A stretch of DNA of 64,000 nt. Origin: Octopus vulgaris (taxonomy: Eukaryota). A program made the translations under genes and the position numbers. The notes beneath the pieces were generated by a model. The model ran no database searches and was not told the origin of the DNA. It saw only the letters and a list, made by a program, of their open reading frames with translations. Shown here piece after piece: positions 29,531 to 31,567 of this stretch. Position 1 is the first letter of the stretch, and each line of letters begins with the position of its first letter. The stretch covers positions 116,126,001 to 116,190,000 of the forward strand of contig OX597821.1 in assembly GCA_951406725.2 (NCBI GenBank). The letters are read 5' to 3'.

Positions 29531-31567
29531 TATTTCATAAAATTTATCATTATAGACAGTGCAAAGAGTGTGTAGCTTTGCTGGCTGGACAAACACATTA
29601 ATGAATGAAAATGAAATAGAATGAATAAATGAGAGACGGAACCCAACACCCGCCGATTGGATTTTTCTCGAAAACATATTTTCTTTTTTTAAAAATCAAT
29701 ATGAGGTTTCAAATCTCTTACAAGAAGGAGGCACTAAAACCTCTTACTTAACATGTTTTTTTTTTCTTTTTTAAAACACACAATTGAGGTTATAAACCAC
29801 TACAAATAATACAATAAGATGAGGTTTCAAACCCTATAACGAGGGTCTTTCACCTCCTACTCTTCGATATATCCATCGATATCTTCATCATTATATTCAA
29901 TGCCGCTTGAGTTCCTGTATCCCGCCATTTCCCATGCCTCACTCATGTAGGACATGTAAGTCGTGTAAGGGCCACCCGGCCATATGCGACACTCCTCCCC
30001 AAATCCTTTAAACCTTTCCCATAAGGGAAACCTTATGACCTCCACAGCTATCTACGGAGGCCATTCGGGATCCCGTGTGAAGAGCATATCTACTTTCTCT
30101 TTATGCTCTTCTACTAATTTTTCCACCTCCCCGCCCTTGTAGAAAAAGATAATTAATTGATCATCTTTAAGGGTAGGGTGGTTTCTTCCACCGCGGGTGG
30201 CACAACTTCGGGACATGCAGACGGCACATCATCTCCCCGCTGAGATGACCCGTTCTTCTTCCTTCTTTTTTTTCTTTTCTTCCTGGCTTCGGGAGAGTGG
30301 AGCTCTTCCGCTTTGTCCGGAGACTCTCCCCCGCCTCTCAAAGCCTTAGGTTCCTTCGGCGGGCAACTATTGTTGCCCACCTTCTTCCTTTTTAATCCTT
30401 TTTGAGTTGAGGAGGCTGAAGCCTCCTCGACTACATCCACCTCTCCCTTTGACCGGGTAGGGGAGGTGGCATCTAGTGACTGTTCCAGGACCATACCATG
30501 GTCCTGGGGGCAGTTCCTTTTAATGTGGCCTGGCTGCAGGCACGAGTGACACTTGGGGGACATCCCTCAAGTATCACCGGATACCTGCAGCCAGTCATTT
30601 TCAAGAAATCTGGAAAAACCAGATCTGTTGCGGCCGATGGGGTCCACAGGGTCAAAATCGCTTTTGACCCTTCCCAATCGACCGCCGGCAATACCCTTAC
30701 ATTTAAGAGCCTGGGCCCGCCATCCCCCAGTCCCCGCCGGATGGTATCTTCAATCCAATCCGCTTCGGTACCCGGGGGCAACCCACATACCCAGGCTCGT
30801 ATTAATTTTTTTCCACAATATGACGGAAGGAACAGAATTTCCTTGCCTTCTAAAGGCTGACTCTCAAACTGGCGAGCCTTTTCTCTGTTGTCAAACAGCA
30901 ACCATGCGGTTGCATGTTTGACACCACGGGATATATATTTTAAAGAGGACAAATGTTCTTTAAGTTCATTTTTTTATGACTTGCTTTGGGAAGACGGTAA
31001 TGGAATTAAGAACTTTAGAATATGTTCTAAGTAACATCGTCTTCTCCTCCATATCTTTTAACCACTGCTTAGGCGGGTTAATTTCCCACTCTAAGACAGA
31101 GTTTTTCTTTTTAAGTTCCTTCTCTGCCATGTCAAAAAACAGTTCAAAAGACAGTCTGCCAAACAATTAAACCGAATAAAAATAAAACAAAATAAAAGAG
31201 GAGGGGAGGAAACTGAAATTAAAGTAATGAAAAGAATGAACCAAAATTTAGAAAGAAAGAAAAAACAGAAGAAGGGAAAAGTAAAAAAACCCCTCACAAA
31301 TAGCACAGACAGGGAATCCTTTGTATAATACTCTAAAAAGGTAATCCAAATGGCTTATTCTTATTTTTCTGGCGAGATACGCCCACTAGTATTTACAAGA
31401 AGAATTTTCAAGCAAAAATTCTCAATTCACCGTTACGGTGATGAGAACCCAGTATTTTGCTCGCTATAGTTGACAATTTTTCTTTTTGTTCTTTTTTTCT
31501 ATTCATGGAGCCGAAACTCACATCTTCTCACAGTAACAATCCAGACCAACTAGTGTTGCATTCTGGA
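29531..31567 (-). mobile_element. ORF1-only (half) Tx1-like non-LTR retrotransposon, complete insertion with 14-bp TSD
   Basis: TSD TAAGCAAGCTACTT at 29517-29530 and 31568-31581; 5'UTR, ORF1 relic and 3'UTR ending ATGAAATA(AAG); no RT or endonuclease sequence. Confidence 0.88.
29857..31130 (-). pseudogene. Frameshifted ORF1 (CCHC zinc-knuckle, gag-like nucleic-acid-binding protein)
   Basis: Joined frames MAEKELKK.../..YISRGVKHATAWLLF..FLPSYCGKKLIRAWVCGLPP..VILEGCP/PKCHSCLQPGHIKRNCP..RKKRKKRRKK; three frameshifts and one stop. Confidence 0.85.

Follow-up and report, generated by a model that had tools for sequence, protein, structure and literature searches.

A multi-copy family of ORF1-only LINEs inserted in the head of an octopus SINE and probably mobilised in trans by a site-specific ORF2

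Half elements and target-specific LINEs

The Gag protein of HeT-A directs the addition of this element to chromosome ends. HeT-A of Drosophila (Jockey clade, with TART/TAHRE) and Ag-Sponge (CR1 clade) are described as ORF1-only elements that rely on the ORF2 of a partner (PMC5786205). HAL1 is likewise described as non-autonomous, encodes only ORF1p and has its origin in the L1 group (PMC5753468, PMC5786205), and the octopus element reported here resembles it in these respects. In contrast to HAL1, however, the octopus ORF1 is of the tandem-RRM/CCHC and not of the Transposase_22 type, and the element is without a long poly(A) and has a fixed target site and a tail shared with its putative partner. 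Judged by these features, with no Transposase_22 and no poly(A) tail, it is not a strict HAL1. HeT-A and Ag-Sponge belong to other clades than the octopus element. HeT-A is targeted to telomeres (PMC5537684), whereas the octopus element is targeted to an internal sequence, with a 14-bp duplication. The tested features of the HAL1/HeT-A/Ag-Sponge class are found in the octopus element, namely a LINE ORF1p, no ORF2 before the 3' end, the same structure in multiple divergent copies, and marks of target-primed reverse transcription.

A fixed site in a multi-copy repeat is also the habit of the Tx1-clade LINEs Tx1 (in Tx1D), Keno (in U2 genes), Kibi, Koshi and the crocodilian Tx1-Mar, but these are autonomous, whereas the octopus element is non-autonomous. 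Tx1 families are reported to target other transposons and to pass this preference to non-autonomous partners, and target choice is attributed mainly to the endonuclease (PMC4494074). In crocodilians, SINEU-3 is mobilised by Tx1-Mar and inherits the Tx1 target inside a transposon in 313 of 347 copies (PMC4494074). SINEU elements are short and non-coding with an snRNA-derived head, whereas the octopus element is 2 kb long and codes for ORF1. For octopus, an L1-Tx1 expansion and tRNA-Core SINEs have been reported (PMC8967140). In the portions of the literature searched, no SINE head is among the targets named for target-specific Tx1-clade LINEs. Neither an ORF1-only Tx1 element nor a LINE targeting a SINE head in octopus was found in that literature, which consists largely of open-access papers. 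Each ingredient has a precedent, and the ORF1-only family may already be in Repbase or Dfam. Half elements are known, and the present site-targeted form was not found in the literature searched.

A decayed ORF1-only insert in the head of SINE-A

The window, i.e. the whole stretch of 64,000 nucleotides of Octopus vulgaris DNA that was analysed, contains a 2037-bp minus-strand insert at positions 29531-31567. The insert lies between exact 14-bp repeats, which we annotate as the target-site duplication, with one copy on the 3' side of the element (29517-29530, plus strand) and the other on its 5' side (31568-31581, plus strand). An earlier note on this DNA, made from the sequence alone, had proposed such a duplication-bounded insert of 2037 bp with a 5'UTR of ~440 bp, one CCHC-containing ORF1 and a 3'UTR of ~330 bp, and our measurements agree with it. 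The 5'UTR comprises 437 bp (31131-31567, minus strand), ORF1 has ~424 codons over a coding span of 1274 bp (29857-31130, minus strand, with the ATG at 31130 and the stop ending at 29857), and the 3'UTR comprises 326 bp without any ORF2 remnant (29531-29856, minus strand). The description of the element as complete holds for its extent, which is full length, and not for its reading frame, as ORF1 is broken by frameshifts at ~30970, ~30552 and ~30175 and by a stop codon at 30052-30054. With three frameshifts and one stop, the window copy is dead and decayed.

When all six frames of the insert were searched with a profile built from two ORF2 relatives, there was no match (best E 0.39, with a negative score), which bears out the reported absence of ORF2. 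The same profile recovered both ORF2 pieces located elsewhere in the window. There is no A tail past the terminal motif of the insert. The extreme 5' end of the element can form a 28-nt hairpin (31540-31567, minus strand; -10.5 kcal/mol, z -3.2), and one of 200 shuffles was equally good. A search of the element against Rfam gave no ribozyme or other family, only five chance-level matches, none of them near the gathering score.

The CCHC zinc knuckle of ORF1 (30504-30554, minus strand) is recognised by the Pfam family zf-CCHC (PF00098) with 22.4 bits against a cut-off of 20.8. The middle segment of ORF1 is 69% identical to the uncharacterised Octopus sinensis protein XP_029652367 (P0001), the single match to this segment among 1239 longer candidates. 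The structure model of P0001 (mean pLDDT 78.7) best matches the tandem-RRM proteins hnRNP A1, NONO and HuR, with E values of 2.5e-5 and up and low TM-scores (0.2-0.3). From this model of a close relative, two RRM-like domains are predicted at 30560-31100 (minus strand), so that ORF1 would consist of tandem RRM-like domains and a CCHC knuckle. RRM/CCHC ORF1s of non-mammalian animals are described in terms consistent with the Tx1 clade (PMC5203782). The Atlas places the ORF1 protein with CCHC and ZCCHC3-type clusters.

A search with P0001 gave 47 representatives at E <= 0.001; when 17 of these homologues were looked up, nine were named, from O. sinensis, O. vulgaris, O. bimaculoides and Argonauta hians. 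No endonuclease or reverse transcriptase domain was found in any of the 23 ORF1 homologues scanned, and Pfam gave no Transposase_22 match in these homologues or in the window segments. By eye, the C-termini of the ORF1 homologues resembled the last coding segment of the element, but a profile of these regions from six homologues does not support the resemblance, as its best match (E 0.9) lies outside that segment. Distant homologues (P0005, P0048-P0050, P0006, P0019 and P0042) lie on contigs of 1.7-2.2 kb, which is the size of an ORF1-only element, in collections where short contigs are usual. A pattern search for the DNA surrounding another distant homologue, P0051, gave 201 matches, none of which was confirmed.

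Without the insert, the flanks join to an ordinary copy of a repeat of ~500 bp, which we name SINE-A. The 5' part of its tRNA-like head is found at 31568-31601 and the remainder, with an internal microsatellite, at 29090-29530 (both minus strand), and the element runs in the same orientation as this host SINE. The first part contains what we take, reading by eye against the box consensus, to be an A-box-like motif (31583-31593), and the second part what we take to be a B-box-like motif (29489-29499). The insertion site is located just after the A-box-like motif and before the B-box-like motif, and the stretch around it folds as a hairpin (z -2.9). Rfam and ARAGORN found no tRNA in the SINE-A head. 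The head matches at ten loci in the window, nine of which span the insertion site, and two of these nine are occupied, one by the insert at 29531-31567 and the other by an insert at 54778-55939. Both insertions are at the same base and have the same 14-bp duplication, in line with the specific target suggested in the earlier note. SINE-A may correspond, by description only, to the octopus tRNA-Core SINE (tRNA-derived head and CORE domain) that goes by the name OR2 (PMC4758252). In another SINE-A copy, a ~334-bp insert at 51376-51709 lies in the internal (AT)n microsatellite.

The insert at 54778-55939 (minus strand) is 5'-truncated and ORF2-bearing, and its 14-bp duplication (54764-54777 and 55940-55953) is a perfect copy. 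It holds only the C-terminal end of ORF2, without reverse transcriptase or endonuclease, and it contains an internal deletion of ~80 residues and a nested SINE-B copy. The earlier note had regarded it as an ORF2-bearing copy of the same element; it belongs instead to another, related family, and the bodies of the two inserts show no likeness in BLASTN. Relatives of this ORF2 end are P0053 (79%) and P0054 (60%) over 57 residues, the two matches among 15 candidates. Both relatives carry reverse transcriptase and zf-RVT domains, and P0054 also carries an APE endonuclease (Exo_endo_phos, RVT_1, zf-RVT). The nearest solved structure to them is human L1 ORF2p, with E 3e-70 compared with 4e-25 for R2. 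A homologue search with the C-terminal 125 residues of ORF2 passed none of 214 candidates, and the Atlas put this C-terminus in unnamed clusters, with zf-RVT only at 0.85. The APE, reverse transcriptase and C-terminal zinc-binding domains of the relatives are those of the L1/Tx1 group, and an assignment of the putative partner ORF2 to Tx1 is likely.

The likeness between the two inserts is confined to the last ~40-45 bases of each. In the element, this tail occupies 29531-29572 (minus strand) and includes a hairpin with a 4-bp stem at ~29545-29558; in both tails, a 4-bp stem is possible at ~15 bases before the terminus. None of 2000 dinucleotide shuffles reached the score of the shared tail over 45 bases; when the final 8 bases were excluded, the score was reached by 3 of 5000 base shuffles. 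The terminal ATGAAATAAA that had been pointed out as shared is indeed part of both ends, except that its last two bases belong to the duplication, and the common stretch is ~40-45 bases in length and not 10.

Other elements were noted in the window. At 40683-42211 (minus strand) there is a second ORF1-only-looking element with an intact 454-aa ORF1 homologue (profile E 2e-63; 24% identical to P0001), a 3'UTR of ~165 bp and no ORF2 nearby. A target-site duplication was sought for this element and not found. Its tail matches the tail of SINE-B (0 of 2000 shuffles), an abundant 236-bp SINE with copies at, for example, 55366-55601, 54127-54357 and 159-394. The SINE-B tail also resembles the tail of the ORF2-bearing insert, with a score reached by 1 of 2000 shuffles. 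This likeness to both tails suggests a Tx1-type partner for SINE-B. The SINE-B copy nested in the ORF2-bearing insert has a 19-bp duplication. At 20674-22490 (plus strand), a decayed, 5'-cut ORF1 homologue starts at the (TA)n run of an old SINE-A and is followed without a gap by an ORF2 piece from behind the endonuclease (44% to P0053). This arrangement is either a two-ORF element with an internal deletion or a pair of neighbouring pieces. A perfect 21-bp tandem repeat in 8 copies is found at 50852-51020, and ORFs of 216 and 129 aa at 61345-61995 and 62689-63078 (minus strand) have no Pfam family at cut-off. A fragment at 57759-58277 (plus strand), located after a (CATA)n run, resembles the C-terminal end of another LINE ORF2, and Pfam gave no match to it.

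Copies in public sequencing runs and competing explanations

Contigs from four of the 24 listed public runs (X1, X3, X5 and X15; organisms coded A, B and C) were aligned at 80% likeness to the insert and ~35 flanking bases. The alignment yielded 46,239 pieces (32 listed), 1251 loose ends (24 listed) and 100 joints (15 listed). X15 may be RNA and was taken as evidence of structure, not of expression. All 30 bins of the insert were covered in all four runs. The summed contig depth in X1, which is no copy number, was 13,000-188,000 in 26 of the 28 inner bins, compared with 26-78 for single long contigs. As many as 106 different contigs of X1 cover one site of the element, which implies a minimum of tens of copies, with a true number that is probably much larger. 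The contig depth is higher at the 3' end of the element and falls toward the 5' end, a pattern as with 5' truncation.

The lesions of the window copy are not those of the family. The stop codon at 30052-30054 is missing from more than 98% of the depth in all four runs. Each of the three frameshifts has a listed one-base indel that compensates for it, again in all four runs, with shares of 2-100% in short contigs, which under-report gaps. The family frame is therefore open at all four lesion sites, and other copies are without the lesions. Among the in-frame ORF1 variant sites listed, 11 of 25 are synonymous, and where both letters are common, 4 of 5 are, which are too few to test for selection on ORF1. 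These counts come from the 40 of 196 variant sites that were listed, with one further site at a frameshift dropped.

The junction between ORF1 and the 3'UTR is bridged in three of the 32 listed pieces, with at least 31 bases on each side and from three runs (X1, 29729-29942; X3, 29799-30018; X5, 29718-29921). These pieces are 7-16% different from the window copy, and two of the three could be one orthologous locus. The contig depth shows no drop at this junction, and no loose end is found there among the 24 of 1251 listed. The SINE flank together with the 3' end of the element is spanned by pieces of X1 and X5, with 30 and 20 differences, respectively. At the other boundary, an X15 piece spans the 5' end of the element, the duplication and the SINE head, with 12 differences and 26 gap letters. 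Behind 31567, there is no pile of loose ends at this 5' boundary among the 24 of 1251 listed, though rows of 3-10 contigs appear, and no 5'-truncated copy of the ORF1-only family is joined to the SINE head among the rows listed. We note that empty SINE sites were mostly registered as loose ends and not as joints, so this alignment is poor at showing joints to the right flank. As the contigs are short, no listed piece spans the whole element, and the window copy alone is read end to end. In the contig alignment, a sister ORF1 subfamily diverges near 30352-30392, in the ORF1 linker. A 21-base pattern of site plus tail had no matches in metagenome and viral contigs.

A third tail type is represented by 33 contigs of X3, 20 of X5 and 8 of X15, which part from the element as loose ends at 29545. 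These contigs follow the site and the first 15 bases of the tail and then continue into related tails, whose agreement of 0.62-0.71 indicates a mixture; they are further relatives at the same SINE-A site. The three tail stems differ by two compensatory pair changes, as compared by eye and with the family majority base used at 29546. These changes point to a tail hairpin and are suggestive only, as the tail hairpins are insignificant by energy (z -0.1 and -1.25, with z -0.1 for the hairpin at 29545-29558 alone). A 3' stem-loop is described as common in the tails of stringent-type LINEs and SINEs (PMC3747384).

Divergent contigs that bridge the junction, and others that join the ends of the element to the same SINE site, indicate a family and not a one-off deletion, and the insert at 29531-31567 belongs to a multi-copy ORF1-only family. 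The earlier note had raised the prospect that other copies carry ORF2 at the junction; the three divergent contigs listed run from ORF1 straight into the 3'UTR. It is thus scarcely tenable that an autonomous element lost its ORF2 in a single event at this locus, or that the insert is a processed host-gene copy. Some copies do have internal deletions, of different sizes and each in a single contig (15 of 100 joints listed), and the protein resembles host ZCCHC3-type clusters by features, but the family is multi-copy, and the three contigs that cross the junction in three runs are differently diverged, with a depth there as high as on either side. The family might otherwise have arisen recently, by an internal deletion in a single autonomous Tx1 family and after a brief spread, with ORF1 as a passenger without selection and a parent with nearly the same ORF1 still in the genome. 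This would be compatible with the same SINE-A targeting, and HAL1s are described as having arisen several times by such deletions (PMC5753468). The sister subfamily that branches in the ORF1 linker and the existence of a 69% identical protein agree with it, as does the old ORF1 homologue directly before the post-endonuclease ORF2 piece at 20674-22490, an arrangement in which ORF1 of this type occurs beside ORF2. However, among the rows listed, at 80% likeness, there is no branch to other sequence at the ORF1 stop, so a parent this close is not visible. In addition, the 326-bp 3'UTR has only its last ~40 bases in common with the ORF2 insert, and the family frame is open at all four lesions. We therefore regard such a derivative as unlikely.

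A different account of the shared site is that a single insertion in SINE-A was followed by copying of the composite of element, SINE body and SINE tail by the partner LINE of the SINE, so that the site was inherited and not chosen afresh. This hitchhiking likewise had to be excluded for SINEU-3 (PMC4494074). It predicts the same 3' flank and the same 3'-to-5' gradient in depth, and no independently 5'-truncated family copy with a duplication is among the rows listed. We nevertheless consider it quite improbable. Copies made from the element's own promoter would drop the upstream SINE head, yet the window copy and the divergent X15 contig keep both the duplication and the head, and the 24 listed rows hold no pile of loose ends behind 31567. 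T runs stop Pol III transcription, and the 5'UTR is rich in T runs, which would halt Pol III read-through. Moreover, a perfect duplication flanks the 5'-truncated insert at 54778-55939, which indicates that the SINE-A site is cut repeatedly.

Proposed mobilisation in trans and its meaning

We believe that the insert probably represents a non-autonomous ORF1-only LINE family of the L1/Tx1 group, similar to HAL1 and HeT-A, that is mobilised in trans by a site-specific ORF2 of Tx1 type. We infer the mobilisation in trans from the identical site, the identical duplication and the shared tail. An intact master copy would be transcribed into an RNA of ~2 kb, probably from its own 5'UTR, and its tandem-RRM/CCHC ORF1 protein would package this RNA. 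The ORF2 protein of an autonomous relative would then recognise the shared 3' tail of ~40 bases, which is able to form a small hairpin. Following established LINE biology, the partner endonuclease would nick the SINE-A head at a fixed position that has the A box on one side and the B box on the other. The copy would then be inserted by target-primed reverse transcription, in the orientation of the SINE and with a 14-bp duplication. Marks of target-primed reverse transcription are present in the 14-bp duplication and in the 3'-to-5' gradient of depth. Many divergent copies exist in which the 3'UTR follows directly on ORF1, and the window copy has since decayed. Each insertion would part the promoter boxes of the SINE by 2 kb, and the SINE would in this way be an abundant, harmless landing site. 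The ORF1p of the element may also multimerise with proteins of the partner, as has been proposed for HeT-A, HAL1 and Sponge (PMC5786205). The family of the insert at 54778-55939 is a candidate donor, with only the tail in common with the ORF1-only element, and the sister ORF1 subfamily that parts near 30352-30392 may or may not carry ORF2.

A wider reading is possible, and we offer it tentatively, as one that we would sooner doubt than adopt. Octopods may harbour a guild of long-lived ORF1-only elements of Tx1 type with selected ORF1s, each tied by a 3' hairpin tail of ~40 bases to an ORF2 donor whose target it inherits. The donor of the family at 29531-31567 would then cut in the Pol III promoter of one major SINE, and the element at 40683-42211 would share its tail with the other major SINE.

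ORF1-only LINEs pose the question of why ORF1 is kept when the enzyme is borrowed, and the fixed, scorable target and the short shared tail of this family make that question testable. If the family is mobilised in trans, sequence-specific targeting passes to a 2-kb coding RNA that has only ~40 bases in common with its donor, and such targeting in trans bears on how site-specific LINE enzymes could carry cargo. A SINE promoter would join the list of safe havens of Tx1-type elements, and for an abundant octopus SINE, a Tx1-type partner is suggested. If the guild reading is true, one enzyme lineage would serve coding half elements and a SINE while disabling a competing SINE, and octopods would offer a natural setting for separating ORF1, tail code and target choice from one another.
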